The notes under the pieces are model-generated. The model was not told where the DNA came from. It saw only the letters and a list, made by a program, of their open reading frames with translations, and ran no database searches. Shown in pieces: positions 3,642 through 60,248 of a stretch of 60,248 nucleotides of DNA (position 1 is the stretch's first letter; each line of letters begins with the position of its first letter). A program made the translations under genes and the position numbers. Source of the stretch: Candidatus Magasanikiibacteriota bacterium (GTDB lineage: Bacteria; Patescibacteriota; Patescibacteriia; Magasanikbacterales; GWA2-37-8); the NCBI GenBank assembly GCA_016189025.1, contig JACPGS010000012.1:1-60248 (forward strand), in the 5' to 3' direction.

Positions 3642-3700
3642 TATACTGTAGAAGAATCGGTAAATCTGTTAGCATCAGGGCGCGGCAGACGAGTGTCTTT
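3642..3700 (+). repeat. Truncated left half of the MITE-like repeat (copy B)
   Basis: tatactgtagaagaat..ttagcatcagggcgcggcagacgagtgtcttt matches the left arm of copies A and D, then breaks off. tatact is present on both sides. Confidence 0.65.
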
Positions 3701-3718
3701 AGTATACTAGATGAAATT

Positions 3719-7090: not shown

Positions 7091-8023
7091 ATGCAATGGC
7101 AATGGAAACAGTTTATTAGTAACAGTTTAATAATCCTTGCCCTGGGTGCGGCAATGCCAGTATGGGCATCACATGAAGGCAGTCATGTGGACGTCGGATT
7201 ACGCAAGCTAATTGCGTCTCCGACCGAACAGTGCCCTAACCAAGATACTTGTTTAGGATTATGTCAGTGCGAAGTTAAATACGAGGATGCCGAAACTTCT
7301 TATCGTTTTAACTTTTTCACTCCCAAGGACGGTTATATACTTGATGGTTGGTTGCTGGGGGGCGACGTAACTACCGGCCTTTACCAATGGAAGAATGTTT
7401 TTTATTTTACTCCGACGGTAGGCAATGTATCAGGTAAATGCCAAATAGAATCACAGGGCAGGACTCCAGAATACCAGCAGGTTGCCGCGGAAGAATTGGA
7501 GGTTAATCGGTGCAATTTCTACCGGGCATTTTGTTGCTGTACCACTGACTCTTCCGGCAAACGTACCAAATGCCAACGTTCAGTCAATTTTGATCTGACT
7601 AAATCACCGCCCGCTTACCAATGTTCCGGCGCCGGCGAGCAAGCATTTGATGAACCCAAAACCAACGAAGGGTGCAAAGCGTTGGAATATCGGGAGGCAG
7701 TGAAACCCGGCGAAGAGCCCACCGAGCCGCTGGCGGTGGCGGTGGGGAGATTGCAGCGCCAGGCGCGCGGGCTGCAGCGGGTGCCGCGTTTTACCAGTCC
7801 GGCCCAGGTGCTAGGGTTTGCCACCAACGTACTGGTGATGTTTATCGGCGCCCTGGCCCTGGTGATGTACATTTTTGCCGGCTTTCTGTGGATGACCGCT
7901 TCGGGCAACACCGAGCGCATTGAGCACGCCAAGCGTTTGCTGGTGTGGACCACGGTGGCAGTCGCCATTATGATATCAAGTTATCTGTTAGTGAGCCGAG
8001 TGTTTGTATTTTTAGCGAAGTGA
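7091..8023 (+). CDS. VirB2/TrbC-like membrane protein, paralog 2, with N-terminal 12-Cys module
   Basis: Signal peptide, 12 Cys (CPNQDTCLGLCQC.., FCCC..), and C-terminal core MYIFAGFLWMTASGNTERIEHAKRLLVWTTVAVAIMISSYLL. Confidence 0.7.
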   Translation: MQWQWKQFISNSLIILALGAAMPVWASHEGSHVDVGLRKLIASPTEQCPNQDTCLGLCQCEVKYEDAETSYRFNFFTPKDGYILDGWLLGGDVTTGLYQWKNVFYFTPTVGNVSGKCQIESQGRTPEYQQVAAEELEVNRCNFYRAFCCCTTDSSGKRTKCQRSVNFDLTKSPPAYQCSGAGEQAFDEPKTNEGCKALEYREAVKPGEEPTEPLAVAVGRLQRQARGLQRVPRFTSPAQVLGFATNVLVMFIGALALVMYIFAGFLWMTASGNTERIEHAKRLLVWTTVAVAIMISSYLLVSRVFVFLAK

Positions 8024-8026
8024 GAG

Positions 8027-8115
8027 TGATTAGCAGAATCAGCAGAGTCAGCAGATTCAGAAATCAGCAATTGGCTGGCTGCTGAATCTGCCGAATCTGC
8101 TGATAGCTGATTACT
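8027..8115. repeat. Gene-less hairpin of the cagcagattcag family
   Basis: gattagcagaatcagcagagtcagcagattcagaaatcagcaa / gctgaatctgccgaatctgctgatagctgatt form an imperfect long palindrome directly upstream of paralog 3. Confidence 0.7.
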
Positions 8116-8130
8116 AAAACATTCCACATT

Positions 8131-8712
8131 ATGCGTTTCTTCCCGACTATCCTCATAATCAGCATCAGTTTAGCGGCCGGCGGCCCCTGGGCGCTGGCGC
8201 CGGCGCAGGCCGCCAAGCCAGCTTTTTGTTGCCAGTGTGTAGATGAGCAAGGGACGCCCCTTCGTTATCCCGCGCGAGTTTCCGCAGATTTTCTTAAAGG
8301 TAAAACCCCTAATGACCTGGATCTGGTTTGTCGTAATGTTGATTTCGGCGCCGGTATCAGATGTTCCGGCACGGCAAAGGATTGCCCCGTAGTAGACGAA
8401 GAATCCGGCTGTTTTACCGCGGACAACGGTTACACCTACTGCGCGCTGGAAAATCCCCTGACTGGAGACGAAACCAACTTGGCCAAGATCTTCGGGCGAA
8501 TTCTTCGCTACGCTCTGGGCCTCCTCGGCGCGCTTACCCTGCTCATGATCGTGCGGGGCGGGCACATTATGCTCACCGCCGCGGGGAACCCCGAAAAAAT
8601 CAAAAAAGGCACCCAGACCATTATGTGGGCGGTAATCGGGGTATTCCTGATTCTCGCCAGTTACTTCCTGATGAGCCGCCTGATTAGTCTGATTACCAAA
8701 GGCACCGTGTAA
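8131..8712 (+). CDS. VirB2/TrbC-like membrane protein, paralog 3, with N-terminal 8-Cys module
   Basis: Signal peptide ..ALAPAQA, 8 Cys (FCCQC..), and core LLMIVRGGHIMLTAAGNPEKIKKGTQTIMWAVIGVFLILASYFL. Confidence 0.7.
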   Translation: MRFFPTILIISISLAAGGPWALAPAQAAKPAFCCQCVDEQGTPLRYPARVSADFLKGKTPNDLDLVCRNVDFGAGIRCSGTAKDCPVVDEESGCFTADNGYTYCALENPLTGDETNLAKIFGRILRYALGLLGALTLLMIVRGGHIMLTAAGNPEKIKKGTQTIMWAVIGVFLILASYFLMSRLISLITKGTV

Positions 8713-8717
8713 TTTAC

Positions 8718-8808
8718 TGTCATTCCGAGGAACAGAGCACCCAACAATTGTCATCCCCGTGTAAACGGGGATCCAGATACTGGATTCCCGCTTCTGCGGG
8801 AATGACAC
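8718..8808. repeat. REP-like palindromic units (gtcattcccgc..gcgggaatgac family)
   Basis: tgtcatccccgtgtaaacggggatccag and ctggattcccgcttctgcgggaatgacac, plus a degenerate unit. The antisense ORF 8170..8808 (MSFPQKRESS..) is a translation artefact of it. Confidence 0.75.
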
Positions 8809-8901
8809 AAGAGCGAGGGTGACAAGTAGGGGACGATGACTATGAGAGCGCTTTGGAGAAAGGCTTTCTTGTTCCTCTTGACAATCATTAGTGTTATTAG
8901 G

Positions 8902-8930
8902 TTGCCAAAAAGGAAGATTTATGCTATACT
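8902..8930 (+). promoter_or_regulatory. Sigma70-type promoter candidate for paralog 4
   Basis: TTGCCA, 17 nt, TATACT. A strong SD (gaggggg) lies before the ATG at 8993. Confidence 0.5.
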
Positions 8931-8992
8931 GTAAGCATAGCTAAAAACGGATTAGTTTCCGTTAGTTTACTTAAACGAGAGGGGGTGACACT

Positions 8993-9487
8993 ATGGACAA
9001 CTTTCGTAAGATTATCGGCAGTCTGTTGGGCACGTTAATGATGTTGACGGCGGCTCCCGCTTTAGCGGGCACCACTCCAGTCGGCAGCGCTTGTACCGTG
9101 GACGCCGACTGCGTATCGCCGAACGTGTGTACCGGTTCACCCAAGGTGTGTACCGCGCCGTCAACCAGCGGCCCGCTTCAGGCCACCGACCTGCTTAATG
9201 TCGGCACGCGGAACATCGGCTCCGAAATTGGTCTGGGTACCACCGATGTCCGGATTACGATCGCCAAAATTATCCGCGTCGCCATGGGGCTCTTGGGTAT
9301 CGTCGCGGTAGTAATTGTATTGATCGGCGGCTTTACCTGGATGACGGCTGGCGGCAACGAAGAAAAAGTAGGAGAGGCGAAAAAATGGATCTGGGCCGGC
9401 ATTATCGGCCTCGCCATTATCCTCTCTGCTTACGCCATTGCCAGCTTTGTCATTACCCAGCTGATTCAAGCGACTACCCAACCGTAG
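8993..9487 (+). CDS. VirB2/TrbC-like membrane protein, paralog 4, with short N-terminal 4-Cys module
   Basis: Signal peptide ..APALAG, ACTVDADCVSPNVCTGSPKVC, and core VLIGGFTWMTAGGNEEKVGEAKKWIWAGIIGLAIILSAYAIASFV. Confidence 0.75.
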   Translation: MDNFRKIIGSLLGTLMMLTAAPALAGTTPVGSACTVDADCVSPNVCTGSPKVCTAPSTSGPLQATDLLNVGTRNIGSEIGLGTTDVRITIAKIIRVAMGLLGIVAVVIVLIGGFTWMTAGGNEEKVGEAKKWIWAGIIGLAIILSAYAIASFVITQLIQATTQP

Positions 9488-9547
9488 TAAATTTTCTTAA
9501 GTCATTTGATTACTAAAGGTCGGGGGAAAATTAACTCAACCTTACTT

Positions 9548-9958
9548 ATGTTAAAAATCAAACAATTTGTTTCCACCGCGCTTGCTGCCTTGATGGCGGT
9601 AGCGGCGACTTTCGCGCCGGTAGCGCTGCCGATTGCTTCGGCCCAGACTATCACTAACCAGGACCTGGGCATTCAATACGGCGCGGCCACCGGCCTCGGC
9701 AGCACTGATGTGCGGGTAACGGTAGCCCGCATTATCCGGGTAGCCATGGGGCTCCTGGGAATTATCGCGGTAGTAATTATCCTCATCGGCGGCTTTACCT
9801 GGATGACGGCTGGCGGCAACGAAGAAAAAGTGGCGGAAGCCAAGAAGTGGATTTTTGCCGGCATTATCGGGCTTGCCATTATCCTCTCTGCTTACGCCAT
9901 TGCCAGCTTTGTCATTAACCAGTTGGTAACGGCCACCACCACCGGCGGCACGATTTAA
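9548..9958 (+). CDS. VirB2/TrbC-like membrane protein, paralog 5 (no Cys module)
   Basis: MLKIKQFVSTALAALMAVAATFAPVALPIASA signal peptide. The core is nearly identical to paralog 4 (ILIGGFTWMTAGGNEEKVAEAKKWIFAGIIGLAIILSAYAIASFV). ATG 9548 is preferred over the TTG at 9506. Confidence 0.75.
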   Translation: MLKIKQFVSTALAALMAVAATFAPVALPIASAQTITNQDLGIQYGAATGLGSTDVRVTVARIIRVAMGLLGIIAVVIILIGGFTWMTAGGNEEKVAEAKKWIFAGIIGLAIILSAYAIASFVINQLVTATTTGGTI

Positions 9959-10046
9959 CGAAGAAGCAACCTCGCAAGAAAGCAGCCGAGCCTCGCGGCT
10001 CTCTGCTTTCTTGGCTTATTGCTTGTTCCTCGCCCCTTCATTGTTT

Positions 10047-10721
10047 ATGCTGTTTAGTCGCTTTCGCGCCTCGGCCGCCATCATCGGAATCGCCCTGGTT
10101 TTAATGCCGGCGTTGGCAACGGCGCAGGAAAAACCGGATGAGTACGGCTTGGAAACTGCCGTGGGGCAAACCGGCGGGCTGCTGCGGCCGACGGTAGCCG
10201 GGCAGAGCACCGTAGAAGGCGTAATCGGCGAAATTGTAAAGGCCTTGCTTGGGTTTACCGGCATTATTTTTTTTGGGTTGATGTTGTACGCCGGTTTTAC
10301 CTGGATGCGCGCTTTCGGCAACACCGAGTATGTGGAGCGGGCCAAGAGCATTTTGGAAGCGGCGGTGATTGGGCTTCTGCTGGTGCTGGCCGCTTATGCC
10401 ATAGCCACCTTTGTGTTTGAGAGCCTAACTAAAGGAGCGGGCAGTACGGCCGGCGGGGGAACTTCCACTGCTTTGGCCTGTACGGCGGGCAGAGTAGACG
10501 GAGCAGAATGCGGCGATAATAAGGTATGCGATTGCGGATTAGAGCAGGGAGCTGCCTGCACTAGCGCGGGAACCTGCGTAGATTTGTGCCAGTATAATTT
10601 TAGCGATAAAAACGGCGTTTGCACCGATGTTAGCGGTAGTGGCGGCGCTTGCCCGGGCAGCAAAATTAAAGAAACTGGATTGTGCCCGGGCAGCGCCAAT
10701 AATGTCTGCTGCCACGATTAG
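10047..10721 (+). CDS. VirB2/TrbC-like membrane protein, paralog 6, with C-terminal 12-Cys module
   Basis: MLFSRFRASAAIIGIALVLMPALATA signal peptide, core MLYAGFTWMRAFGNTEYVERAKSILEAAVIGLLLVLAAYAIATFV, then a Gly-rich linker and 12 Cys. Confidence 0.7.
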   Translation: MLFSRFRASAAIIGIALVLMPALATAQEKPDEYGLETAVGQTGGLLRPTVAGQSTVEGVIGEIVKALLGFTGIIFFGLMLYAGFTWMRAFGNTEYVERAKSILEAAVIGLLLVLAAYAIATFVFESLTKGAGSTAGGGTSTALACTAGRVDGAECGDNKVCDCGLEQGAACTSAGTCVDLCQYNFSDKNGVCTDVSGSGGACPGSKIKETGLCPGSANNVCCHD

Positions 10722-10734
10722 TTATTTTTTGAGT

Positions 10735-11499
10735 ATGGCGAAACGTATCTTTTATAGTTTTTTGCTGACTTTAATCGGCGGAGGATTTTTGTTTGCCCTA
10801 GCGAGCGGGGCAGCAGCCGGGCCATTTGGCGAAGCGCAAGAACGGCTCAGGAAGGCGGTTGGCAACACCGGTTTAAGTCCGCAAATTGAAACTCCGGTCG
10901 GGGCGGTGGTAAAAGGCGCGCTGTCGCTGGTGGGCACGGTATTTTTGCTGCTGACGGTTTACGCCGGCATTTTGTGGATGACGGCCGAGGGCCAGGAAGA
11001 GCGGGTGGAAAAAGCGCGCAAAATTATTACTGCGTCAGTCATCGGCCTGTTTATTACTCTGGGCGCCTACGCCATTACCTTTTTTGTCACTACGCGTCTG
11101 GGAGGGGCAGCGCCGGGGGGTGGGGGAACCACCCCAGCCGGCGTACCACCGGTATCAGGAACTCCGGGGTTCTCGGTTACCACCGAGGCTACTTGCTGGT
11201 CGCAAGGTGGTTGGTGTATGGACGATGCGTTAACCGGAGATAAGACCGGGGGGAAAGATTATGCCGTAAATGATTATGACAGCAGCAACCCCTGCGATCC
11301 CAACGGCACCGACCCGTTTGAAAATCATCAGTTGGGGACCTGTGAGAACGGCGTCAAGTGCTGCGAACTAAAGGCTTCAACGCAAAAGTGCACTCAATTA
11401 AACAATACCAGTTGCGGCGCCGCCAGTTGCGGCCCCACCCAATACCCGGTCGGCTTTAAGTGCGACAACGGCAATCCTTGTTGCGGTGCCAATCCTTGA
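10735..11499 (+). CDS. VirB2/TrbC-like membrane protein, paralog 7, with C-terminal 12-Cys module
   Basis: MAKRIFYSFLLTLIGGGFLFALASGAAA signal peptide, core TVYAGILWMTAEGQEERVEKARKIITASVIGLFITLGAYAITFFV, Gly/Pro linker, and 12 Cys (..KCCELK..PCCGANP). Confidence 0.7.
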   Translation: MAKRIFYSFLLTLIGGGFLFALASGAAAGPFGEAQERLRKAVGNTGLSPQIETPVGAVVKGALSLVGTVFLLLTVYAGILWMTAEGQEERVEKARKIITASVIGLFITLGAYAITFFVTTRLGGAAPGGGGTTPAGVPPVSGTPGFSVTTEATCWSQGGWCMDDALTGDKTGGKDYAVNDYDSSNPCDPNGTDPFENHQLGTCENGVKCCELKASTQKCTQLNNTSCGAASCGPTQYPVGFKCDNGNPCCGANP

Positions 11500-11507
11500 A
11501 CCTCCCT

Positions 11508-11993
11508 ATGAAAATTTTGGCTGGAGTAGTAGTAAGTATTTTCGTCATTTTGCTTTTTGCCGCTTCCAGTGTTTGGGCAGCGGTAGACATTGGCAGTAAT
11601 CTTACCCAAGAAGTAGCGCGCCAGGCGGGTTTTGAAACCAGTGGCGTTACCGAAACCACTTTTTCCGAACAAGTGGGGCGCGTGATAAAGGCGGCCCTGG
11701 GGCTCGCGGGCACGGTATTTTTGGCGCTTACCATCTACGCCGGCATTTTGTGGATGACCGCGAGCGGCAACGAAGAACAGGTGACCAAAGCCACCGGGAT
11801 TTTACGCCAGGCGATTATCGGCCTGATTATCGTGCTGTCGGCCTACGGTTTGGTAGTATTTGTGCTGGTGGCAGTGAGCAGCGCCGGCGGCGCCGGCACC
11901 GTGGGCGGCGCTGGGGCGAGTACGGGCCCGGCCGGATTCTGGAAGAGCTTTGGCGGGCATTTTAAGAATAATTGGTGGCGGTATTTGTTCTAA
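11508..11993 (+). CDS. VirB2/TrbC-like membrane protein, paralog 8, with Gly-rich aromatic C-tail
   Basis: MKILAGVVVSIFVILLFAASSVWA signal peptide, core TIYAGILWMTASGNEEQVTKATGILRQAIIGLIIVLSAYGLVVFV, and tail ..GFWKSFGGHFKNNWWRYLF. Confidence 0.7.
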   Translation: MKILAGVVVSIFVILLFAASSVWAAVDIGSNLTQEVARQAGFETSGVTETTFSEQVGRVIKAALGLAGTVFLALTIYAGILWMTASGNEEQVTKATGILRQAIIGLIIVLSAYGLVVFVLVAVSSAGGAGTVGGAGASTGPAGFWKSFGGHFKNNWWRYLF

Positions 11994-11994
11994 A

Positions 11995-12030
11995 GCAGAT
12001 TAAGAGATCAGCAGATTCAGCAGTCAGTCC
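11995..12030. repeat. Half-site of the cagcagattcag repeat family
   Basis: agcagattaagagatcagcagattcagcagtcagtcc. Only one arm is present. Confidence 0.5.
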
Positions 12031-12090
12031 TGTCATTCCCGCGAACGCGGGAATCTATCACCTGGATCCCCGCTTGCGCGGGGATGACAG
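12031..12090. repeat. REP-like palindromic units
   Basis: tgtcattcccgcgaacgcgggaatc and ctggatccccgcttgcgcggggatgacag. Confidence 0.75.
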
Positions 12091-12102
12091 TTTGCAACTC
12101 CT

Positions 12103-12531
12103 ATGCGCCCTACCATAATTATCCTCTCCGCTATCTTTGCCCTCGCCCTCTTAACTGCAGCAACGGCGCAGGCGCAATTGGCCTCCGAGGAAATCGGTAA
12201 ACAATTGGAGGCCGCGGCGGGCCCCAGCGGCGCCGCGCTCGGCGAGCCCATTGACCCGCGCGTTACCGTGGTGTTTATTATCCGCGTCCTGCTGTCGCTT
12301 ACCGCTACGGTACTCGTCGCCCTTAACCTTTACGCCGGATTTATGTGGATGACCGCGGCCGGCAACGAAGAGCGGGTAACTTCTGCTAAAACTATCATCC
12401 GCAATGCCACTATCGGCCTGATTATCGTGCTTTCGGCTTACTCCATTACCATTTTCGCCTTCAACCTGGCGCGCGGCACGCCGCCGGTTCCTCCGGGCGC
12501 CGAAATTGTCATCCCGCTCTTCGGCAAGTAG
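12103..12531 (+). CDS. VirB2/TrbC-like membrane protein, paralog 9
   Basis: Signal peptide ..LLTAATAQA and core LNLYAGFMWMTAAGNEERVTSAKTIIRNATIGLIIVLSAYSITIFA. Confidence 0.75.
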   Translation: MRPTIIILSAIFALALLTAATAQAQLASEEIGKQLEAAAGPSGAALGEPIDPRVTVVFIIRVLLSLTATVLVALNLYAGFMWMTAAGNEERVTSAKTIIRNATIGLIIVLSAYSITIFAFNLARGTPPVPPGAEIVIPLFGK

Positions 12532-12542
12532 CTCCCGCGCTT

Positions 12543-13256
12543 GTGGTATCCGTGATTATTCCGGCGTTTAACGAAGAGGAGCTGCTGCCGCAGTGTCTTA
12601 CTTCTCTCTCGGCGCAAAAGGGCGCTCCGCCTTTTGAAGTAATAATCGTCAATAATTTTTCCACCGACCGCACCCGCTTGGCGGCGGAGCAATTCCGCGG
12701 CCGCCTTAATTTGCGGGTAGTGGACGAGCCCCGGCGCGGGCGCGGTCAGGCGCGGGCGCGCGGATTTGCCGAAGCTCAAGGCGAAATTCTCCTCTCCACC
12801 GATGCCGACGCTATCCTGCCGGAGCACTGGGTAGCCGCTCTTACGCAGGCGCTGCAAAACCAAAACATTGCGGCCGTTACCGGCCCGGCGCGGGTCGCTG
12901 ATTGCGGCGCCCTCGGCAGCGCCCTGTTTAACGGGATTTTTTTGGCCACGGTGCGCGTGTACCGGCTGCTCTTCGGCCACGTTTGGCTCGGCGGCTATAA
13001 CTTCGGCATCCGGCGGCCGGCTTACCAGGCCGCCGGCGGCTTTAATGCGGCGCTCAACGCGATGGAAGACGTTGACTTGGGCTGGCGGGTGCATCGCTCT
13101 GGCGGGTCCATTCGCTATTTGCCCCGGGCCGGGGTAACTTTCTCCGGCCGGCGCTTCCGGACCGGCATTTCCCGGGGTCTATGGGATTACCTGCGATTAT
13201 TTTATCGTTATCGGCGGGGCGCCGCGGCGCCGGTAGTGCTGTCGGATGTGCGGTGA
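12543..13256 (+). CDS. Family 2 glycosyltransferase
   Basis: VSVIIPAFNEEELLPQCLTSL.., a DxD-like motif (STDADAILP), and ..YNFGIRR. GTG start. Confidence 0.8.
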   Translation: MVSVIIPAFNEEELLPQCLTSLSAQKGAPPFEVIIVNNFSTDRTRLAAEQFRGRLNLRVVDEPRRGRGQARARGFAEAQGEILLSTDADAILPEHWVAALTQALQNQNIAAVTGPARVADCGALGSALFNGIFLATVRVYRLLFGHVWLGGYNFGIRRPAYQAAGGFNAALNAMEDVDLGWRVHRSGGSIRYLPRAGVTFSGRRFRTGISRGLWDYLRLFYRYRRGAAAPVVLSDVR

Positions 13257-13276
13257 AGAAAACTGCGAGGTATTTT

Positions 13277-13449
13277 GAGACTATAGAAGAATGCCGACGA
13301 TACTATTATTCGTCAGGGCGCTGTCGCTCTTGCCCGGCCTGCCTGGTCGGGCGCGGCAGACACTCTACGTGCTCGCGAGGGCTCAAGCGCGTAGAGACTC
13401 GTCTGCCGCGCCCTGATTCTGACTGATTTTTTGATTCTTCTACAGTCTC
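13277..13449 (-). mobile_element. MITE-like repeat, copy C (divergent core, reverse orientation)
   Basis: TIRs gagactatagaagaat / attcttctacagtctc, inner arms gcgcggcagacactct..agagactcgtctgccgcgc, flanked by the direct repeat atttt on both sides. Confidence 0.7.
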
Positions 13450-13460
13450 ATTTTATTAGG

Positions 13461-13533
13461 GGTGTCCAGTCGGATTTGAACCGGCGCTCAGGGAGCCACA
13501 ATCCCTGGTGCTAACCACTACACTATGGACACC
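13461..13533 (-). tRNA. tRNA-His (anticodon GTG)
   Basis: G-1 plus acceptor GTGTCCA/TGGACAC, anticodon stem AGGGA/TCCCT with loop TTGTGGC, T arm GCCGG-TTCAAAT-CCGAC region. Confidence 0.85.
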
Positions 13534-13541
13534 ATCAAGCC

Positions 13542-13616
13542 TGGTGACCCCACTAGGAATTGAACCTAGATCTAGAGCTTAGAAGGCTCCCGTTCTATCC
13601 GTTGAACTATGGGGTC
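13542..13616 (-). tRNA. tRNA-Arg (anticodon TCT)
   Basis: Acceptor GACCCCA/TGGGGTC, D arm GTTC-AACGGATA-GAAC, anticodon loop CTTCTAA, T arm CTAGG-TTCAATT-CCTAG. CCA is encoded. Confidence 0.9.
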
Positions 13617-13725
13617 ATTCCCTGGGGGTCGATAAACTTCGCTTATCATACCGGATTTTGCGCACAAAAGCAAGGTGTGGTACCATATCAGTTAGTCAGC
13701 CATCCCATTCGGCAAGCTCAGGGCA

Positions 13726-13794
13726 GGCAGCAGATTCAGAAATCAGCAAGTGGTTGGCCGCTGAATCTGCCGAATCTGCTGATAACTGATTGCT
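13726..13794. repeat. Gene-less hairpin of the cagcagattcag family
   Basis: ggcagcagattcagaaatcagcaagtggttggccgctgaatctgccgaatctgctgataactgatt is nearly identical to the 8027-8115 copy. It lies directly upstream of paralog 10. Confidence 0.7.
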
Positions 13795-13809
13795 AAAAAA
13801 TTTTCTGCT

Positions 13810-14178
13810 ATGCGCACCATCAATATCATTGCCGTATGGCTAATGCTGGTAATCACTCCCCTGCTCTTAGTGGGGGTGTGGCGGGCCAGCGCCCAAAACT
13901 ACGGGTTAGATAAAACTGCCGGGCAGGCCGGCTATACCGCGGCCGAGCGCCAGATTGAGCCGCTGGTAGAGCGGGCGGTAAACGGATTTTTGGCGCTGCT
14001 CGCGATTTTGTTCCTGGGGCTGATGCTCTACGGCGGCCTGCGCTGGATGACGGCCCGCGGCAACGAGGAACTGTCCGGCCGGGCCAAACACGCCATTGAA
14101 GCGGCCATTATCGGCCTTACCATTGTGGTCGCTTCTTACGCCATCGCCACGTTGGTATTCCGGTTAGTGGGGGGTTGA
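13810..14178 (+). CDS. VirB2/TrbC-like membrane protein, paralog 10
   Basis: Signal peptide ..VGVWRASA and core LMLYGGLRWMTARGNEELSGRAKHAIEAAIIGLTIVVASYAIATLV. Confidence 0.75.
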   Translation: MRTINIIAVWLMLVITPLLLVGVWRASAQNYGLDKTAGQAGYTAAERQIEPLVERAVNGFLALLAILFLGLMLYGGLRWMTARGNEELSGRAKHAIEAAIIGLTIVVASYAIATLVFRLVGG

Positions 14179-14642: not shown

Positions 14643-15213
14643 TCGCGGGGCAACTGCCTTGCCTAAACCGCACCCTCTTAAGCACCCGGAACAGCGCGTC
14701 GGGGTGTTTATTGACGTGCAGAACATGTATTACAGCGCTAAGAATCTGTTTGGCGCCAAGGTTAATTTCGGCAATATTGTTAAAGAGGGTACGGCCGGCC
14801 GCAAGCTGATTCGCGCCATTGCCTATGTGGTGCGCACCGAAAGCAAAGAAGAGCAGCCGTTTTTTGATGCGCTGTATAATTTAGGCATTGAAACCCGCGA
14901 AAAACCCCTGCAGATATTTTTTGGCGGTGAAAAAAAGGCAGATTGGGATGTCGGCATGGCGGTTGACGTCCTTCGGCTGGCGCCGGCCCTGGATGCAGTT
15001 GTGCTAGTTTCCGGAGACGGTGATTTTGTTCCCCTTATTGAATATGTGCGTATTAATCAAGGTCGGCAGGCCGAGGTGATGGCATTCGGTGAAACCGCTT
15101 CCAGCAAGCTGATTGAAGCGGCCGATGATTTTACCGATTTAAGCCAGGCGCCCGATAAGTTTTTAATCGCCGGCCCCCGGCGCAGCTGGCGGGCGGCGTT
15201 GGGGAAGAAATGA
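14626..15213 (+). CDS. NYN-domain (LabA/DUF88-like) putative ribonuclease
   Basis: [45 protein letters not shown] matches the NYN/LabA acidic-residue pattern. It overlaps the rpsO 3' end by 17 nt. Confidence 0.75.
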
Positions 15214-15273
15214 GCAATTAACAATTAACAAAGAGCAATTAACTTGCTCCTTGTTCATTGCTAATTGTTAATT
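15213..15273. repeat. caattaacaat-type palindromic repeat
   Basis: gagcaattaacaattaacaaagagcaa / ttgctccttgttcattgctaattgttaatt is an imperfect hairpin starting at the NYN gene stop codon. Confidence 0.65.
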
Positions 15274-15363
15274 TTCATTTAATCACGGGTTCTGGCGCGC
15301 GGACCCCGAGACCTTTTCCGGTAAAGAGGTCTTACGCTCGCTCGCCAGCCCCGCCACTAAATT

Positions 15364-18085: not shown

Positions 18086-18114
18086 CCTCTCGCCCATCAA
18101 AGATCAATTATGTA

Positions 18115-18142
18115 TGGATTCCCGCTTACGCGGGAATGACAC
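18115..18142. repeat. REP-like palindromic unit in the rRNA leader
   Basis: tggattcccgcttacgcgggaatgacac. Confidence 0.7.
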
Positions 18143-19730
18143 AATTGTAGCCACGTCCCGCGGGACCTCTGGAAGTTAAAGCAGATAATAATTTGCCCTA
18201 TGTCTTCCAGCGGTTTACTCTTTTTCCCCGGCGGGTGATGGTTTTTTTATCAAGAGCGGCCGCCTGGGGAGCGGTCTTTTTTGTTTCTGAGTGTAAATTG
18301 TGAGCGGAGCGAAGAGTACGAAAGGGATTCTTCGCTGCGCTCAGAATGACAGTGACGATTGCGCCGGAAGGCACTTTGACAATTCAAAAGTAAAGGGTAG
18401 AAACCAAGCCCGGCATTGCTGCGACTAACCGTCGGAGCGGTACCGGGTAAAACCAGAAAGCACTTTTGAGTGTTTTCGTGGTGTGCAATTTCATATTAAG
18501 AGCATACGGTGGATGCCTTGACACCAAAAGACGATGAAGGACGTTGCAGGGTGCGATAAGCCTCGGGGAGCTCCCAAGCAAGCAGTGATCCGGGGATGTC
18601 CGAATGGGGAAACCCATCTGGAACCTTTACGGTTCCGGGTACGGTACAGTGAATCCATAGCTGTGCCGAGAAGACCTGGCGAAGTGAAACATCTCAGTAG
18701 CCAGAGGAAAATAAATCGCAGAGATTCCCTTAGTAGTGGCGAGCGAAACGGGAACAGCCTAAACCTTATCCGTGTGTCTGGAGTATCTGGTTGATCTCAC
18801 GATTAACTTTGGTCTCCAGGTGAAAGCCGCAGGGCGTTGCGGGTAAGGGGTAGTAAGACGTTTACGCTGACTTCCTGCGAAGTCGGGTGATTTAAGTTCT
18901 TTCCTAGCAGAAGGCTCTGGAACGAGCCGCCCAAGCGGGTAACAGCCCCGTACGCGAAAGGAGTGCAAAAATCATAGTAGATGTTCTTGAGTACGGCGGG
19001 ACTCGTGAAATCCCGTCTGAATCCGGGCCGACTATGGTCTAAGGCTAAATACTTTTGGTGATCGATAGTGGACAAGTACCACGAGGGAACGGTGAAAAGC
19101 AGCCCGGTGAGGGCGATGAAATAGTATCTGAAACCGTGTGCTTACCAGGAGCAGGAGACTTGGTCGTCAGAACTCTGGCCGCCGATAGCGGCCAGAGTTC
19201 TGACGACCGGTTAACTGTGTTCCTATTGAAGAATGAGCCTGCGAGTATGTGTGCGCTGCCAGCTTAAGGGCCTATGGCCCGGAGGCGCAGGGAAACCAAG
19301 TCTTAACGGGCGTCTGCCCAGCATCTTTTTGGTGCTGGGTTAAGTAGCGCATATATAACCCGAAACCGGGTGAGCTATCCAGGGCCAGGATGAACCCCTG
19401 CGAAAGCAGGGGGGAGGTCCGCACTCACGCGCCGTGCAACACGCGGAGATGAGCCGTGGATAGGAGAGAAATTCTAATCGAACTCGGTGATAGCTGGTTC
19501 TCCTCGAAATAGTTTTGGGACTAGCCTCGGGAATTTCTGCCGGCGGTAGAGCACTGGATGAGACTCGGGTCCTTCGGGATACCAGTTTCAATCAAACTCC
19601 GAATGCCGAACAGTTAACATCCCGGGAGTCAGAGTGTGGGGGCTAAGCTCCATGCTCAAAAGGGGAACAGCCCAGATCGCCAGCTAAGGTCCCTAAGTCC
19701 AGGTTAAGTGTAAAAGGTGGTGTTAGTTCT

Positions 19731-38334: not shown

Positions 38335-39290
38335 ATACTAACAAACTGAAGGCAGCCGTGCTGGGCGGCGGGAACGGCAGCGCCATCGTGCTCTCCGGAT
38401 TAAAAAAGTACGCTGACCGGCTGGCGCTCTCGGCGGTAATTTCCATGAGCGATTCGGGCGGCTCCACCGGCCGGCTGCGCCAGGAGTTTAACACTCTCCC
38501 ACCGAGCGATATCATGCGCGCCGTAGTGGCGATGTCGCGCTATGATTTTACGGCGCTGCGCCAGATTTTCTACCGCAATCGCTTCTCGGGGCCAGGCAAA
38601 TTAGACGGCCACAACCTGGGCAATCTATTTGTTGCTTTGGTGGCGCAGTACGCCGGCGATTTTATGGCGGCGATTCGGGCGTTGGAGATTAGTTTGGAAT
38701 CGGTGGGACGGGCGTATCCGGTAACGCTCCAGGTAAATGATTTGGCGGTGGAGCTGGCCAACGGAGCAGTGGTAAAAACCGACGAAGTAATTGACCGGCC
38801 GAATTATGACCGGAGTTTACGCATCAAACGGATGTGGCTCCAGCCGGCGGCGGCGGCCAATCCGGAAGCAGTGCGCGCAATTAAAGCAGCTGATTATATT
38901 ATTTTAAGCCCGGGCAGTCTTTATACCAGCATCATTGCTACATTGTTGCCGACTGGCATTAAGGAAGCGATTGCGGCTTCACGCGGCAAGCTGTGGTATG
39001 TGGCTGGCAATGCTTTTCAGTTAAACGGTGAAACCGGGCCGGCCAAACTCTCGGAAGCCGTAGCCGAGCTGGAGCAGTATTTACCCCGCCCGGTGGATAT
39101 AGTATTGTATAACAACGTCAAGCTCAATTCCGCACAGCAACAGCGCTATGCCGACAAGCAGTGGGGGTTGCTTACTTTAGATGCCGCGGCGCTGGGGAAT
39201 CGCCCGGTAATTGGCAAAGATTTTGAAAAGCCGGCTGGGGGGTTGAGCAGCGATAAGCTGGGTAAGATTTTGTTGGCGATGATGAGGTAA
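38331..39290 (+). CDS. YvcK/CofD-family (UPF0052) gluconeogenesis-factor-like protein
   Basis: AAVLGGGNGSAIVLSGLKKY..MSDSGGSTGRLR..ILSPGSLYTSI. Confidence 0.8.
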   Translation: MNTNKLKAAVLGGGNGSAIVLSGLKKYADRLALSAVISMSDSGGSTGRLRQEFNTLPPSDIMRAVVAMSRYDFTALRQIFYRNRFSGPGKLDGHNLGNLFVALVAQYAGDFMAAIRALEISLESVGRAYPVTLQVNDLAVELANGAVVKTDEVIDRPNYDRSLRIKRMWLQPAAAANPEAVRAIKAADYIILSPGSLYTSIIATLLPTGIKEAIAASRGKLWYVAGNAFQLNGETGPAKLSEAVAELEQYLPRPVDIVLYNNVKLNSAQQQRYADKQWGLLTLDAAALGNRPVIGKDFEKPAGGLSSDKLGKILLAMMR

Positions 39291-39293
39291 TAT

Positions 39294-39482
39294 GAGACTG
39301 TAGAAGAATTGAAAATACCAGTTAGCATCAGGGCGCGGCAGACGAGTGTCTTTGGGCGCGCACCCCGACTTAGTCGGGGGAGCACCCAAAGAGTGTCTGC
39401 CGCGACCAACCAGGCTAATTTTAGCAATAGCGATAGCGACCAGTTTAAAAACGCGACATAGTTTGCATTCTTCTACAGTCTC
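39294..39482 (+). mobile_element. MITE-like repeat, copy D (189 bp, best-preserved)
   Basis: Perfect 16-bp TIRs gagactgtagaagaat / attcttctacagtctc with the 5-bp direct repeat aatat on both flanks. The inner hairpin carries the apical ccccgacttagtcgggg. It exactly fills the gap between the yvcK-like stop and the GNAT start. Confidence 0.8.
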
Positions 39483-39485
39483 AAT

Positions 39486-39848
39486 ATGGAAATTAAAAAA
39501 GAAATCAAACGCGAGGGGTACGCGGTGAAAATTACGCTGGCAGAAAACGGCGCGGTGCTCGGCTGGACTTATCTCTATGTGATGTTCCAGGGCCGGCATC
39601 GCGAACCATACGGATATCTGGAAAATGTGTACGTCGAGCCGGAACATCGCGGCCGCGGCCTAGGGAATAAATTGGTAGAATTGGCGATTGCCGAAGCGCG
39701 GGAGCGGAGTTGTTACAAGCTTATCGGTACCAGTAAAATGGAGAAAACCGAAGTGCATGAGTTTTACGCCAAACACGGATTTGCCAAAATGGGATACGAA
39801 TTCCGGCTGGATTTAATCAAAGATTCAGCGGTGATCACTAAAGATTAA
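39486..39848 (+). CDS. GNAT-family N-acetyltransferase
   Basis: VYVEPEHRGRGLGNKLVELAIAEARE matches the acetyl-CoA-binding motif A. Confidence 0.8.
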   Translation: MEIKKEIKREGYAVKITLAENGAVLGWTYLYVMFQGRHREPYGYLENVYVEPEHRGRGLGNKLVELAIAEARERSCYKLIGTSKMEKTEVHEFYAKHGFAKMGYEFRLDLIKDSAVITKD

Positions 39849-43740: not shown

Positions 43741-43826
43741 TGTCATTCCCGCGAACGCGGGAATCCAGCGCCTGGATCCCCGCTGGAGTTTACCCTCGTG
43801 GATTCCCGCTTACGCGGGAATGACAC
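43741..43826. repeat. REP-like palindromic units (three)
   Basis: tgtcattcccgcgaacgcgggaatccag, ctggatccccgctgg.., tggattcccgcttacgcgggaatgacac. The last unit encodes the final residues (RVIPA) and the stop codon of tmk. Confidence 0.75.
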
Positions 43827-44541
43827 GGGGGCGAGGATGACTCGCCAGCAGGCGAGAGAGTAAGCGGGTAGCTTCTTGTTGTAGTATATCAATTTTTACG
43901 TCGGCCGCCAAGTCGTGTATTACAGTGCCGCAATCGGTGAAGAGGGCGCGGAATTGGGAAGAAGCAAAACGCGCCGCCGCCGCAGTCTGGAAAGCCAAGT
44001 TTTCAAAGATCACATTATCGCGTTTGGTAGTGCGTTTCCCCAGGCGAGAGAGCGCAACGGCGGGTTCAGAGTTAAGTAGCACCAAATGATCGGGGGGGTG
44101 CTGCAGCGCCAGAGTATTGCCCGGGAGCGCGGTTAAAAATTTTTCAGTTAACTGACCGCTTAGCGCCTGGTAGCAGAGCGAAGTGGAAACGCCGCGATCT
44201 TGCAGCACGGTTTTGCCGTCCTGCAGCGCCGGCAGAATTACTGTGGTGTAAAGAATCAAACGATCCAGCGAGTAGGCTTCGGCAATGGCGCGTTCGGGAT
44301 ACCCCGTGCCCTGCCGGATTAGTTCGTCGCGAATCACGCGGCCGACGCCCGCGTGAGTAGGCTCGCCGGAGATAATAAAATTATAGGGCCGGAGTTCGGC
44401 GGCGCCGGGGTGGCGGTGGTGAATTTTCCAGTAAGCGCGCAGGTCAAATACGGCGTTGTCGGCGGCCAGCAAATAATCGGCCCAGGCCTGGAGCACCGTG
44501 CTTTTGCCGCTGCCGTCAATGCCGTCCACGATGGCGAACAT
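43810..44541 (-). CDS. tmk: Thymidylate kinase-like P-loop kinase
   Basis: MFAIVDGIDGSGKSTVLQAWADYL matches the dTMP kinase P-loop context. ATG 44541 is preferred over TTG 44553. Confidence 0.75.
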   Translation of the reverse strand: MFAIVDGIDGSGKSTVLQAWADYLLAADNAVFDLRAYWKIHHRHPGAAELRPYNFIISGEPTHAGVGRVIRDELIRQGTGYPERAIAEAYSLDRLILYTTVILPALQDGKTVLQDRGVSTSLCYQALSGQLTEKFLTALPGNTLALQHPPDHLVLLNSEPAVALSRLGKRTTKRDNVIFENLAFQTAAAARFASSQFRALFTDCGTVIHDLAADVKIDILQQEATRLLSRLLASHPRPRVIPA

Positions 44542-44620
44542 AGCAATTAACAATTAGCAATTAACAATTAGCAATTAGCAAGTTACCCAATACTTGTTCA
44601 TTGCTCTTTGTTAATTGTTC
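44542..44620. repeat. caattaacaat-type palindromic repeat
   Basis: agcaattaacaattagcaattaacaattagcaattagcaag / cttgttcattgctctttgttaattgtt. The right arm encodes the last codons (..RTINKEQ) and the stop of folA. Confidence 0.65.
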
Positions 44621-45089
44621 TTTTTTCATATTTCACAAACGCAAATCCCTGGTGGTCTTCGCGCCAGGTTTCTTGCCAGACCGTTCGGTCAATCGGCGGA
44701 AAGAAGGCGTCGCCGGCGTCAACCGTTTGGTGGACGCGGGTAATTTCCAGCACCTCGGCGAGCGGCAGCATTTCTTCGTAAATTTTCTGCCCGCCAAAGC
44801 CGATAATGGCTTCGTGGGGGTGCGCCGCTATCGCCTCATTAATAGTAATATACACCTCCACCCCTGGCGGGAATTGGGCGCGCGGGGCGCGGGTGATAAC
44901 CACATTGGTGCGGCCGGGCAGCGGCCGGCGAGACTCGGGGATAGACTCCCAGGTGCGGCGCCCCATTATCAGCACTTTGCCGAGCGTCAGCGCCTGCATC
45001 CGGCGCCAATCCTCGGGGATACGCCAGGGGATGCCCCCATTTTTGCCAATGCAGTTATTTTGCGCCACCGCGGCGACGAGGGTGATCAT
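44598..45089 (-). CDS. folA: Dihydrofolate reductase
   Basis: MITLVAAVAQNNCIGKNGGIPWRIPEDWRRMQALTLGKVLIMGRRTWESIP. The internal ATG is preferred, because the longer ORF to 45326 reads through the MITE. Confidence 0.9.
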   Translation of the reverse strand: MITLVAAVAQNNCIGKNGGIPWRIPEDWRRMQALTLGKVLIMGRRTWESIPESRRPLPGRTNVVITRAPRAQFPPGVEVYITINEAIAAHPHEAIIGFGGQKIYEEMLPLAEVLEITRVHQTVDAGDAFFPPIDRTVWQETWREDHQGFAFVKYEKRTINKEQ

Positions 45090-45109: not shown

Positions 45110-45299
45110 TAGATTGTTGAAGAATACCTACTGTATCGTTATTCGCCTGGTCGCTATCGCTACTGCTAAATTTAGCCTGGTTGGTCGCGGCAGACACTCT
45201 TTGGGTGCTCCCCCGATTTAATCGGGGTGCGCGCCCAAAGACACTCGTCTGCCGCGCCTTAATGCTAACTGGTTTTTCCTCCCATTCTTTTACAATCTC
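45110..45299 (-). mobile_element. MITE-like repeat, copy E (190 bp, reverse orientation)
   Basis: TIRs tagattgttgaagaat / attcttttacaatctc. Inner arms gtcgcggcagacactctttggg..cccaaagacactcgtctgccgcgc with the apical ccccgatttaatcgggg. It fills the thyA-folA spacer. Confidence 0.75.
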
Positions 45300-51789: not shown

Positions 51790-51870
51790 TGTCATTCCCG
51801 CGGAAGCGGGAATCCAGTGTCTAGACTAATGTAGCGATTGTCTAGATTCCCGTTTGCACGGGAATGACAG
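51790..51870. repeat. REP-like palindromic units
   Basis: tgtcattcccgcggaagcgggaatccag .. ctagattcccgtttgcacgggaatgacag. Confidence 0.75.
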
Positions 51871-58029: not shown

Positions 58030-58293
58030 TTAATAGCGGCGATAGATATCGTGCGGCCCGACATCAAGCAGATTGATTTGGTCGGCAGCAGCGAATTCAA
58101 AAAGCACTCGGTATCCTTGGTTGAGACGAAAGGCCAGACATTCTTGCAGCCGGCCTTTGAGTTTATGCGTTTTGAGCAGGGGATGGCGCGGGTTGGTGAT
58201 GAAGATTGCTACTTTAGTTTTGAAGTCTGCTTGAATTACCGTTGGCAATTTTTGGTACGCCCGGGTGAAGCGCGACGAAAGCTTGACCAGCAT
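58030..58293 (-). CDS. RelE/ParE-superfamily type II toxin
   Basis: ..PRHPLLKTHKLKGRLQECLAFRLNQGYRVLFEF..INLLDVGPHDIY is typical of RelE/YafQ-like toxins. It starts 1 nt after the upstream small ORF. Confidence 0.7.
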   Translation of the reverse strand: MLVKLSSRFTRAYQKLPTVIQADFKTKVAIFITNPRHPLLKTHKLKGRLQECLAFRLNQGYRVLFEFAAADQINLLDVGPHDIYRRY

Positions 58294-58294
58294 A

Positions 58295-58555
58295 TCATGA
58301 CTCCAGCGCCGCAATTAGGCTTTTGGCAGTTTTGTGAGTAGTATAATTGCCTAAGGCATAATCAAGTCGCGCTTCATTGATAATTTCGTCAAGCGTCTCG
58401 GCGCGGTTTACTCTTTTCAGGGCATTGACGGCGATTTCCACCACGATCTTTTTTTCGCGGGGATATTGAGCCAGATAATGGAAAGCTGACAGGGGGATAT
58501 TTATCATTGCCTCACGGGTTTTTTTGGAATGTTTAGTAACAGTTTGAGTTTCCAT
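58295..58555 (-). CDS. Putative cognate antitoxin
   Basis: 86-aa ORF immediately upstream of and coupled to the toxin gene. Confidence 0.55.
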   Translation of the reverse strand: METQTVTKHSKKTREAMINIPLSAFHYLAQYPREKKIVVEIAVNALKRVNRAETLDEIINEARLDYALGNYTTHKTAKSLIAALES

Positions 58556-58640: not shown

Positions 58641-60020
58641 TCATTCTATCTTCCACTGCTGTTTCAATCCTTTCCAGCGATTATTTAAAATCGCCTCCCG
58701 CGCCTCGCGCATCAGCGCCAGCGCCAGGTGGAGATTGTGAATAGTGGTAAGGCGCGCGGCCGTGGGTTCGCCGGCGGCGAACAGATGGTGCAGGTAGCTG
58801 CGGGAATAGCGCGCGCAGACATGGCAGGGGCAGTGTTCGTCAATCGGTCGGGTATCGCCGGCACAGCCGGCATTTTTGAGGTTTAGCCGTTCCTCGCCGG
58901 CCGGATTGGGCAGCTGATAAGCCGAGCCGTGCCGCCCCAGCCGCGTGGGCCCCACGCAGTCAAACATATCAGCGCCCTGGTCAATAGCAATCAGCAGGTC
59001 GCGGGGAGAAAGGCCGACCCCCATAGCGTAATGAGGTTTATCTTCGGGGATTAACGGATAAATCCAGTCCATAATTTGTTGGGTGGCGGCCATATTATAG
59101 CCGATGGATTCGCCGCCCACGGCAATACCGTCAAAATCCAGCGCGCTGATGAAACGCGCCGACTCCTCGCGTAGTTCGCGGTGCAATCCTCCCTGGATAA
59201 TGCCGAAGAGGTAACGTTGATGTTCCGAGACCTCCCCTCCTCTCCCCTCCCCTCGGCCAGCTCGGGGCAGGCTCTTAAAAGGAGGGGAGACTTTACTCCC
59301 TCCCCTTTTAAGGGGAGGGTAAGGGGAGGGGTCTCGCGGTTGTCGCCGTTGATGTTCGGCGAGTGATCGCCCGGCCCAGCGGTGGGTGCGCTCCATTGCC
59401 TTTCGGACATACTGGTGGTCAGCGGTATCGGGCGTGCATTCATCAAAGGCCATAATAATATCGGCACCGAGCTGATGTTGCCGCTCAATTGCTGATTCAG
59501 GAGTGAAGCGATGAACCGAGCCATCGCGATAACTGCGGAAAGTAACGCCGTCTTCGCCAATTTTAACCAATTGGCCGTGCGATAATGTTGGGCGGTCATT
59601 AGCAGCCTGCTTTGCTGTTTCATTGTTAAATTGTTTCATTGTTTTATTGTTGAGGCGTAGTGTGATTTTAGTGTTGTTATGTTGCGGTGTTGCCGGGCGG
59701 CGATGTTTATGTCGGCCCAAAGAAAATACCTGGAATCCGCCGCTATCGGTTAAAATTGGCTTATTCCAGCCAAGAAATCGGTGTAAACCTCCTTGGCTGG
59801 CTATTAAATCGGCGCCCGGCTGGAGGTGCAGATGGTAGGTATTGGCGAGAACAATTGAGGTGCCGAGCGCATCTAGATCGCTTTGATCCAGCATTTTTAC
59901 GGCGCCGCGCGTCCCCACCGGCATAAAAGCCGGGGTCAACACTGCTCCGTGGGCGGTGCGGATAGCGCCAGCGCGGGCGCGGGAGTTTTTATCGCGATGC
60001 TCAAGGGTGAAGAAAGACAT
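58641..60020 (-). CDS. tgt: tRNA-guanine transglycosylase with two in-frame insertions
   Basis: MSFFTLEH..ARAGAIRTAHGAVLTPAFMPVGTRGAVK.., DSGGFQVFSL, LFGIIQGG, FDCVGPTR, CPCHVC. The start is taken as the internal Met of ORF 58641..60164 (position +/-1, because my hand count of this line disagreed with the track by one base). Confidence 0.9.
   Translation of the reverse strand: MSFFTLEHRDKNSRARAGAIRTAHGAVLTPAFMPVGTRGAVKMLDQSDLDALGTSIVLANTYHLHLQPGADLIASQGGLHRFLGWNKPILTDSGGFQVFSLGRHKHRRPATPQHNNTKITLRLNNKTMKQFNNETAKQAANDRPTLSHGQLVKIGEDGVTFRSYRDGSVHRFTPESAIERQHQLGADIIMAFDECTPDTADHQYVRKAMERTHRWAGRSLAEHQRRQPRDPSPYPPLKRGGSKVSPPFKSLPRAGRGEGRGGEVSEHQRYLFGIIQGGLHRELREESARFISALDFDGIAVGGESIGYNMAATQQIMDWIYPLIPEDKPHYAMGVGLSPRDLLIAIDQGADMFDCVGPTRLGRHGSAYQLPNPAGEERLNLKNAGCAGDTRPIDEHCPCHVCARYSRSYLHHLFAAGEPTAARLTTIHNLHLALALMREAREAILNNRWKGLKQQWKIE
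59226..59346. mobile_element. Palindromic element inserted in-frame in tgt, flanked by an 11-bp direct repeat
   Basis: cgttgatgttc is present at 59215-59225 and 59347-59357, 132 bp apart (44 codons). Element ends gagacctcccc.. / ..ggggaggggtctc are inverted, and an internal palindrome ccctcccctt-ttaa-ggggaggg is present. Confidence 0.7.
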
Positions 60021-60029
60021 AACTGAAGT

Positions 60030-60149
60030 AGGACTTACGCGTTTGGATGCAATGCAAGGAAAAAGCGAGGAGCGGAATAAGCTGTATACAGATATACAGC
60101 GTTGAGCACCGAAGCTTTTGACACCGCAGTGCGCCAAACGCGTAAGTCC
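60030..60149. repeat. Inverted-repeat element in the tgt upstream region
   Basis: ggacttacgcgtttgg (60030-60045) and ccaaacgcgtaagtcc (60134-60149) are a perfect 16-bp inverted repeat. They enclose the hairpin gctgtata-caga-tatacagc. Confidence 0.55.
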
Positions 60150-60248
60150 TGTGAAGGTCAGCATACTGAATGGGGAGCAACTTGAATAGTCAAGTTTTCA
60201 ATGCACCACCTCGTTAATAACTTCGTTAGGACTTTTGTAGTTTAAACA

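Follow-up and report, generated by a model that had tools for sequence, protein, structure and literature searches.

A palindromic repeat element in frame within a variable loop of Tgt in a Magasanikbacteria genome

Palindromes lying in frame within the housekeeping genes of a reduced genome are known from Rickettsia (the Rickettsia palindromic elements, RPEs; Ogata et al. 2000, Science 290:347, as summarised in PMC10969869 and PMC3733652), and palindromes tagged with GTAG or CGTC, the intragenic repetitive extragenic palindromes (REPs), 'decorate' proteins in several phyla (Di Nocera et al. 2013, PMC3733652). [quoted passage not shown] Correia, Nezha and QMITE1, occasionally form in-frame fusions (reviewed in PMC10969869), and in the mitochondria of Nematomorpha conserved protein genes contain coding palindromes, i.e. 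long inverted repeats in frame (PMC6649704). Here we consider a 60,248-base stretch of contig JACPGS010000012.1 (hereafter the window) from a Candidatus Magasanikiibacteriota bacterium, in which the gene tgt, encoding queuine tRNA-ribosyltransferase (Tgt), contains a palindromic block in frame, flanked by an 11-bp direct repeat. An original prediction, made from the sequence of the window, had taken this block to be a mobile element inserted by transposition into an otherwise canonical gene. Our full-text literature searches found no description of in-frame palindromic elements in the Candidate Phyla Radiation (CPR), Patescibacteria or Magasanikbacteria. The account that we consider probable is that the block is a non-autonomous palindromic repeat of ~110 nt, from a family that is multi-copy in Magasanikbacteria, which was copied into tgt and is read through as a tolerated loop.

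The element and its repeat family

Within the window, the gene and the parts of its element are as follows:

58641-60020, minus strand: tgt coding sequence, 459 amino acids, from MSFFTLEH to the stop codon
59226-59336, minus strand: the palindromic repeat element proper, 111 nt between inverted ends
59226-59232: left terminal inverted repeat, + strand C-GAGACC; read in the direction of the gene, this is the element's 3' end
59330-59336: right terminal inverted repeat, GGTCTC-G on the + strand
59298-59319: inner hairpin 1, CCCTCCCCTT-TT/AA-AAGGGGAGGG, with a 10-nt stem that is 100% complementary, the generic unit of the family
59240-59291: inner hairpin 2, whose stem, TCTCCCCTCC...GGAGGGGAGA, is long and imperfect and whose tip is GC-rich, from the minimum-free-energy structure

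The host gene is intact. Its product matches the Pfam TGT family with E=2.3e-126 and solved Tgt structures in the PDB with E~1e-95, and has both catalytic aspartates (D92 and D354) and all four zinc ligands (C397, C399, C402 and H428), each in a column that is invariant across the 120 orthologues aligned here. Candidatus Magasanikbacteria and Patescibacteria supply the best Tgt homologues, the nearest being only ~60% identical, and homologue lengths run from 377 to 516 amino acids. A longer listed open reading frame (ORF) reaching 60164 was rejected as a spurious 5' extension of tgt; the extension has no homology.

Read on the coding strand (CGAGACCCC...GGGGAGGTCTCG), the element comprises an outer stem and two inner hairpins, with C runs in its 5' half and G runs in its 3' half. 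The inverted ends (GCGAGACC...GGTCTCGC) extend into the outer stem, which is imperfect, and a GTAG or CGTC tag is present at neither end. Compared with shuffled sequences the block is unusually stable when folded (as RNA, -81.9 kcal/mol and z=-5.3; as DNA, z=-4.7), which bears out the inverted ends and internal palindromes of the original prediction; its statement that the tgt frame runs through the block without a stop is likewise correct, at least three of the six reading frames being open, and the 111-nt element encodes no separate ORF. On the + strand its G-rich arm (GGGGAGGGTAAGGGGAGGGG, 59312-59331) conforms to the standard G-quadruplex motif, a match of sequence pattern only.

The family to which the element belongs is most readily seen in the genome GCA_030650025.1 (JAUSEN01, Magasanikbacteria), which encodes the Tgt orthologue P0009. 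This genome holds six near-identical copies with the layout GAGACCCCACCC - CCCTCCCCTT..AAGGGGAGGG - spacer - CCCCCCTCCTT..AAGGAGGGGGG - GGGGGAGGTCTC and with GAGACC/GGTCTC ends, the ends of the window element being present also in the JAUSEN copies L011 and L015. All six lie in frame within long open frames, which encode Tgt (at site 2 of the three variable sites described below), TatD, transketolase, KsgA/RsmA, a protein of the metallo-beta-lactamase (MBL) fold and a PHP-like ORF, the last of these having no Pfam hit. The TatD copy occupies a gap relative to Thermotoga maritima TatD, the transketolase copy occupies an inter-domain linker, and the tgt copy of P0009 is identical over 58 nt to the TatD copy of the same genome. 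An nhmmer profile built from only these six copies finds a sole match in the window, at 59252-59335 (E=1.6e-5), so that the original prediction of a mobile palindromic element stands insofar as it concerns a repeat-family copy lying in frame in a variable loop. For ten copies, RNAalifold returns the outer stem and two hairpins, and 7 of the 23 pairs have changed on both sides, a result that in so small and low-complexity a sample is supportive only.

Beyond Magasanikbacteria, a scan for the inner hairpin (CCCTCCCCTT-N4-AAGGGGAGGG, one genome per species) returned at least 120 loci from many phyla, at which the hairpin usually stands within a larger conserved layout, ACCCCACCC - CCCTCCCCTT..AAGGGGAGGG - spacer - second hairpin - GGGTGGGGT. 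Composites of the form ACCCCACCC ... GGGTGGGGT with the hairpin, and often with a second hairpin, were observed in Gammaproteobacteria, Bacteroidota (Fibrella), Chthonomonadaceae, CPR and others (loci L003-L242, e.g. L082, L112, L026, L138, L156 and L178). A long open frame spans 26 of 127 hairpin sites across phyla, a figure that is an upper bound because GC-rich genomes give spurious open frames, and the copies in three other CPR groups are intergenic; the intragenic habit is accordingly a trait of these Magasanikbacteria genomes and not of the whole family. In metagenome contigs a pattern for the 5' half of the element matched at least 120 loci, mostly longer intergenic elements on unidentified contigs, which shed no light on target duplication; these contig versions measure 140-155 nt, have the ends AAGTTAGAGACC...GGTCTCTAACTT and sometimes form tandem arrays (L178).

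The Tgt loop across orthologues and in structure

The 120 Tgt orthologues were aligned, and the columns that aligned well were used for a neighbour-joining tree. Length variation clusters at three sites, and the site of the element in the window Tgt lies between H223 and L271. Here 57 of the 120 orthologues, among them P0017 and P0088, the tree neighbours of the window Tgt, have a canonical loop of 12 residues of the type QKNTSYHGYRQF, which provides the uninterrupted alleles in related genomes that the original prediction had called for; most others have 11-14 residues, and ~40 have 18-60. These ~40 long loops contain inserts from at least four unrelated repeat families, and from their sequences look like translated repeat DNA (VIPAKAGIQ...HGNDN, SSRGAKRRGDP..., VILSETKNPS..., or Pro/Gly-rich as in the window).

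On the tree the long alleles are scattered, and their sisters are often empty or have an insert of another family. Thus P0004 (42 residues) pairs with P0006 (14 residues), P0009 (51) with P0096 (12), and P0002, which has a G-run insert, with P0021, which has a different family at the same site; similarly, P0060 has a G-run insert and its sister P0073 is empty. Empty-site alleles therefore exist at the level of the lineage, and the loop has been colonised repeatedly. In a separate observation, the tgt genes of P0034 (L247) and P0084 (L248) each contain the same short G-run element twice, at site 2 and at site 3.

Structural comparison places the insert in a loop. Zymomonas mobilis Tgt has 6 residues (190-195) where the window Tgt has 42 (227-268), and an AlphaFold2 model of the latter (mean pLDDT 79.7) consists in this region of a helix (202-226), a coil (227-269) with pLDDT <50 at 238-261, and a strand (270-275). 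The position of the insert in this low-confidence connection between helix and strand, and in a gap relative to Tgt structures in the PDB, agrees with the tolerated extra loop of the original prediction. As a helix-to-strand connection of the barrel, the insert would by general TIM-barrel geometry lie on the face opposite the active site.

The prediction that Tgt is otherwise canonical did not hold, as a second insert is present:

59571-59714, minus strand: second in-frame tgt insert, unrelated to the palindromic element, residues 103-150, 48 residues against 1 in Z. mobilis Tgt

This second insert is AT-rich, contains 8-nt tandem units (TGTTTCAT/TGTTAAAT) and encodes ...NNKTMKQFNNETAKQ...; in the AlphaFold2 model it too has pLDDT <50 (98-146). 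A 34-nt stretch of it is identical at 32 positions to an insert of the orthologue P0036 at a different loop (site 2), and it is therefore a member of a second mobile repeat family, no further copy of which was found in the 60-kb window. AT-rich palindromes of 7-nt units (AATTAAC/AATTAGC) lie at gene ends at 15208-15285 and 44537-44629; kinship of the site-1 tgt insert with these AATTAACAAT palindromes at 15208 and 44537, suspected from composition, was rejected as blastn-short gave no DNA match.

A further palindrome family touches the same loops in other genomes. In the window, TGTCATTCCCGCGAACGCGGGAATCCA doublets are intergenic (8746-8807, 12031-12092, 18111-18157, 43741-43841 and 51790-51870). 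The same family is found translated (VIPAKAGIQ...RLHGNDN) within the Tgt loops of P0024, P0034 and P0068, all from other Magasanikbacteria, and is thus intergenic in the window and intragenic elsewhere.

The 11-bp repeat and the route of entry

Three further features bear on how the element arrived:

59215-59225: copy of the direct repeat C-terminal to the insert, in codons E266-H-Q-R269
59347-59357: copy of the direct repeat N-terminal to the insert, in codons E222-H-Q-R225, where helix 202-226 ends
59334-59351: 9-nt tandem repeat, TCGCGGTTG followed by TCGCCGTTG, 8/9 identical as read from the sequence, protein QRR followed by QPR

The perfect 11-bp direct repeat of the original prediction was found again. 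On the + strand, CGTTGATGTTC occurs exactly twice in the window, the starts of the two copies being 132 bp apart, where 0.01 are expected and none of 100 shuffles reaches two. Both copies stand in the tgt frame (GAA CAT CAA CG, i.e. E-H-Q-R), which confirms that the duplicated EHQR peptide reflects the DNA repeat, and by our own rough estimate E, H, Q and R almost never occur together at the C-side positions among the 120 orthologues. A chance origin of the repeat, considered because both copies overlie conserved motifs, was rejected on the grounds of the shuffle result and the rarity of C-side EHQR. The element itself, for which a length of 121 bp had been given, is shorter, at 111 nt between the inverted ends; the spacer that separates the right inverted end from the repeat copy at 59347 falls inside the 9-nt tandem repeat, which to judge from the sequence at the junction would be a secondary slippage duplication, of modest statistical weight. 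Once this tandem repeat is discounted, one 11-bp copy abuts an inverted end and the other is 1 nt away, an arrangement that has the appearance of the classical picture of target duplication.

A number of results nevertheless weigh against insertion of a mobile element with an 11-bp target duplication as the whole account. The flanks of ten family copies (25 nt, any offset) were compared with a null of 90 mismatched flank pairs, and a repeat of 11/11 was found only in the window copy; L002 has 9/11, a score that 5 of the 90 null pairs also reach, and the other eight copies are at the level of the null. The near-identical JAUSEN copies are among those that have no duplications, and decay of old duplications offers no easy explanation because these copies are almost identical to each other; their flanks would thus seem to argue for a mechanism without a fixed duplication, or else for homogenisation of the copies. 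Nor is a duplication seen when the filled P0004 is compared with its empty sister P0006.

The repeat copies also overlie motifs that occur in orthologues with no insert, namely EH[QK][KR], where the helix ends, and, ahead of LFG, [YH]x[QR][FY]. Deleting the insert and one 11-bp copy yields ...AEHQRYLFG, with a loop of 3 residues, whereas the minimum in 119 orthologues is 7. The event must therefore also have removed most of the canonical loop, or have followed an earlier deletion, and since none of the 119 orthologues has so short a loop, the idea that the element simply inserted into a canonical allele does not fit unless a deletion accompanied it. With the closest Tgt only ~60% identical, the homologues found include no true empty site from a close relative.

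Searches for further copies of the window element weigh on the same side. The six copies of the JAUSEN01 genome supply five genes besides Tgt; within the 60-kb window itself, by contrast, exact and 3-mismatch sub-sequence searches, blastn-short of the whole block and the family profile revealed no second copy. No near-identical copy was found anywhere searched, a full-length degenerate pattern gave 0 hits in metagenome contigs, and 1.7 Mb of fetched loci, searched by nhmmer with the window element as the single query, gave only three weak hits. At the protein level, a word-indexed peptide search gave no candidate and phmmer against 1.8 billion representatives nothing at E<=0.001; both are weak tests, and uninformative because the query is of 38-41 residues and low complexity. 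The claim of direct evidence for transposition was thus overstated, since only one of ten copies has a significant repeat, the motifs under it are conserved where no insert is present, and the residual loop is of 3 residues.

Taken as a feature of the sequence, the 11-bp repeat is, we conclude, likely to be a real duplication associated with the insertion, for which a staggered transposase cut and slippage or repair at the hairpin are both possible sources. Transposition with an 11-bp duplication appears plausible, and would be atypical for the family.

The alternative that survives best is entry by recombination, repair or replication slippage, e.g. of hairpin-forming DNA by template switching at microhomology, with the 11-bp repeat a by-product of slippage or local conversion and part of the loop replaced; we regard this as rather unlikely, and as the strongest of the competing accounts. 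It would explain why a significant flanking repeat accompanies only one copy in ten and why the near-identical JAUSEN copies have none, and it accords with the loss of part of the canonical loop from alleles with the insert and with the 9-nt tandem slippage repeat at the junction. In P0034 the element end GACTCTCC supplies the codons of the conserved L-S in the host motif, which hints, from sequence, at microhomology, and no transposase was identified, though the ORFs of the window were not scanned for transposases. On the other hand, if the 9-nt duplication is set aside, the perfect 11/11 repeat nearly abuts the inverted ends, terminal inverted repeats are a hallmark of transposons, and direct evidence for any alternative mechanism is absent.

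Considerably less probable is that the block is an old 'insertion domain', a loop expansion specific to the lineage, inherited vertically and present also in P0009 and P0002, its likeness to the family arising from low-complexity composition or later homogenisation. The G-run inserts of P0002 (L001) and P0009 (L002) do end in GG(T/A)CT(C/G)-G exactly four codons before [FY][LI]FG, as in the window, the unusual C-side motif HQR[FY] is common to the window and P0009, and all three proteins fall in the upper part of the tree. However, each of the three has sisters with the canonical empty loop, the sister of P0002 has a different element family at the same site, and the P0009 copy shares its 58 identical nt with the TatD copy in its own genome; furthermore, the match of the six-copy profile is specific within the window, and stems that are close to perfect, like the perfect 11-bp repeat, speak for a recent event.

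Genes for rRNA in CPR carry intervening sequences, and the RNA fold of the block is very stable; even so, removal of the insert before the mature enzyme is formed, whether the mRNA loses it through intron-like or RNase-mediated excision or the protein through intein-like splicing, is very improbable and the original suggestion of it finds no support, since Rfam returns no relevant family, introns of groups I and II included (its sole hit being a chance miRNA match, E=0.74), 111 nt or 44 residues is far below the size of an intron or intein, and the intragenic copies found all keep frame and have no stops, as expected only if they are translated.

We therefore return to the account of a mobile, non-autonomous repeat, under which events may have run as follows. 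The DNA of the element would be copied to new sites, and one copy would have landed in the loop between helix 202-226 and strand 270-275, which is hypervariable in the lineage. Stop codons are rare in the element because it is made almost wholly of C and G runs, and most frames through it are open and would encode Pro, Gly, Arg, Glu, Ser and Leu. Being stop-poor and adding a multiple of three bases, the insert would be read through, and transcribed and translated with its host gene as a Pro/Gly/Arg-rich, probably disordered surface loop of ~40 residues. The enzyme would tolerate this extra loop, its catalytic and zinc-binding residues being intact, and selection would keep in-frame copies in tolerant loops whilst others were lost, so that only the former are seen. 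The 11-bp repeat would then most likely be a duplication of target sequence at insertion, and the 9-bp tandem repeat a later slippage.

A broader proposal may be ventured only tentatively, and as it stands we think it unlikely to be right in full: that the three-stem G-run/C-run element is a member of an undescribed repeat family across many phyla, with a G-rich half fitting the G-quadruplex motif, which spreads without target duplication, and which in Magasanikbacteria has specialised on the loops of housekeeping proteins, making repeats a main source of protein-length inflation there.

Other repeats in the window, significance and relation to known systems

Several other repeats and gene arrangements were noted in the window. 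A repeat of ~150 nt with GCATCAGGGCGCGGCAGACGAGTGTCT and the hairpin CCCCGAyTTArTCGGGG occurs in both orientations at 1636-1822, 3645-3713, 13272-13458, 39288-39487 and 45120-45277, with 90% complementarity between the arms 39313-39458 and 45132-45277; counted alone, the short hairpin is present 7 times. Starting 10 nt upstream of the tgt start codon is a perfect 17-bp inverted repeat (AGGACTTACGCGTTTGG / CCAAACGCGTAAGTCCT, 60030-60046 and 60134-60150, with 87 nt between the arms), which could be either a regulatory hairpin of the 5' leader or one more small palindromic element. Between trpS and tgt, at 58030-58555, lie two small overlapping ORFs (94 and 86 amino acids), which on their sequences look like a toxin-antitoxin pair of the RelE/ParE type. 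The region 7877-14156 contains an array of ~7 paralogous small genes with shared conserved segments of 56-89 nt (...GFxWMTAxGNEE..., with a hydrophobic C-terminal part), and resembles a tandem family of small proteins, membrane or pilin-like.

The findings extend in-frame selfish DNA, first described in Rickettsia, to the CPR, another group with reduced genomes. With three loops colonised repeatedly by several repeat families across lineages, and with empty alleles at hand, Tgt offers an unusually clear picture of the process. This is relevant to the origin of new protein segments and to the annotation of CPR proteins, in which many Pro/Gly-rich "insertions" may be repeat elements, and to avoiding the scoring of such genes as divergent or broken. 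Most copies have no target duplications, and the family, being present in many phyla, is possibly useful for studying non-canonical spread of repeats.

Amongst the systems introduced at the outset, the mitochondrial palindromes of Nematomorpha are the most readily distinguished, as they belong to an organelle and are perfect long hairpins with both arms coding, not a dispersed family with terminal inverted repeats. MITEs resemble the window element in size (a range of about 50-500 bp), in terminal inverted repeats, in being non-coding alone, and in the flanking direct repeat of this copy. However, the other copies of the family show no significant flanking duplication, 11 bp would be unusually long for one, and the element has no identified parent insertion sequence, although no search aimed at one with GCGAGACC ends was made; in copy number there is a single copy in the 60-kb window and there are at least six in the related Magasanikbacteria genome. 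REPs share with it a GC-rich palindromic nature and small size, sometimes form dimers or clusters, and within genes contribute 20-80 extra residues (PMC3733652); mobilisation by the RAYT tyrosine transposase leaves no target duplication, and would fit most of the copies here. Unlike REPs, the window element has no GTAG or CGTC tag, and its unit is a three-stem composite of ~110 nt with terminal inverted repeats rather than a hairpin of 20-40 bp; no RAYT gene was seen, no search aimed at one having been made.

The closest parallel is with RPEs, which, so far as the summaries cited describe them, are likewise palindromic repeats of ~100-150 bp, present in many copies, in frame in unrelated housekeeping genes, encoding peptide segments compatible with the fold of the host protein and having no known associated transposase. 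Both marks of that class, a palindrome in frame within an intact gene and a location in a surface loop, are found in the window tgt. The differences lie in the host, which to judge by the Tgt homologues is of the CPR whereas that of RPEs is Rickettsia, an alphaproteobacterium, and in the element, whose G-run/C-run arms, GAGACC ends and Pro/Gly/Arg peptide set it, with its host, apart from RPE-1 to RPE-10 as described. In Tgt, moreover, several unrelated families repeatedly occupy the same three loops of one protein, and the copies found in JAUSEN01 are all intragenic (6/6), against about half for RPEs in those same summaries. The window element, then, works like an RPE but appears to be outside that sequence family.

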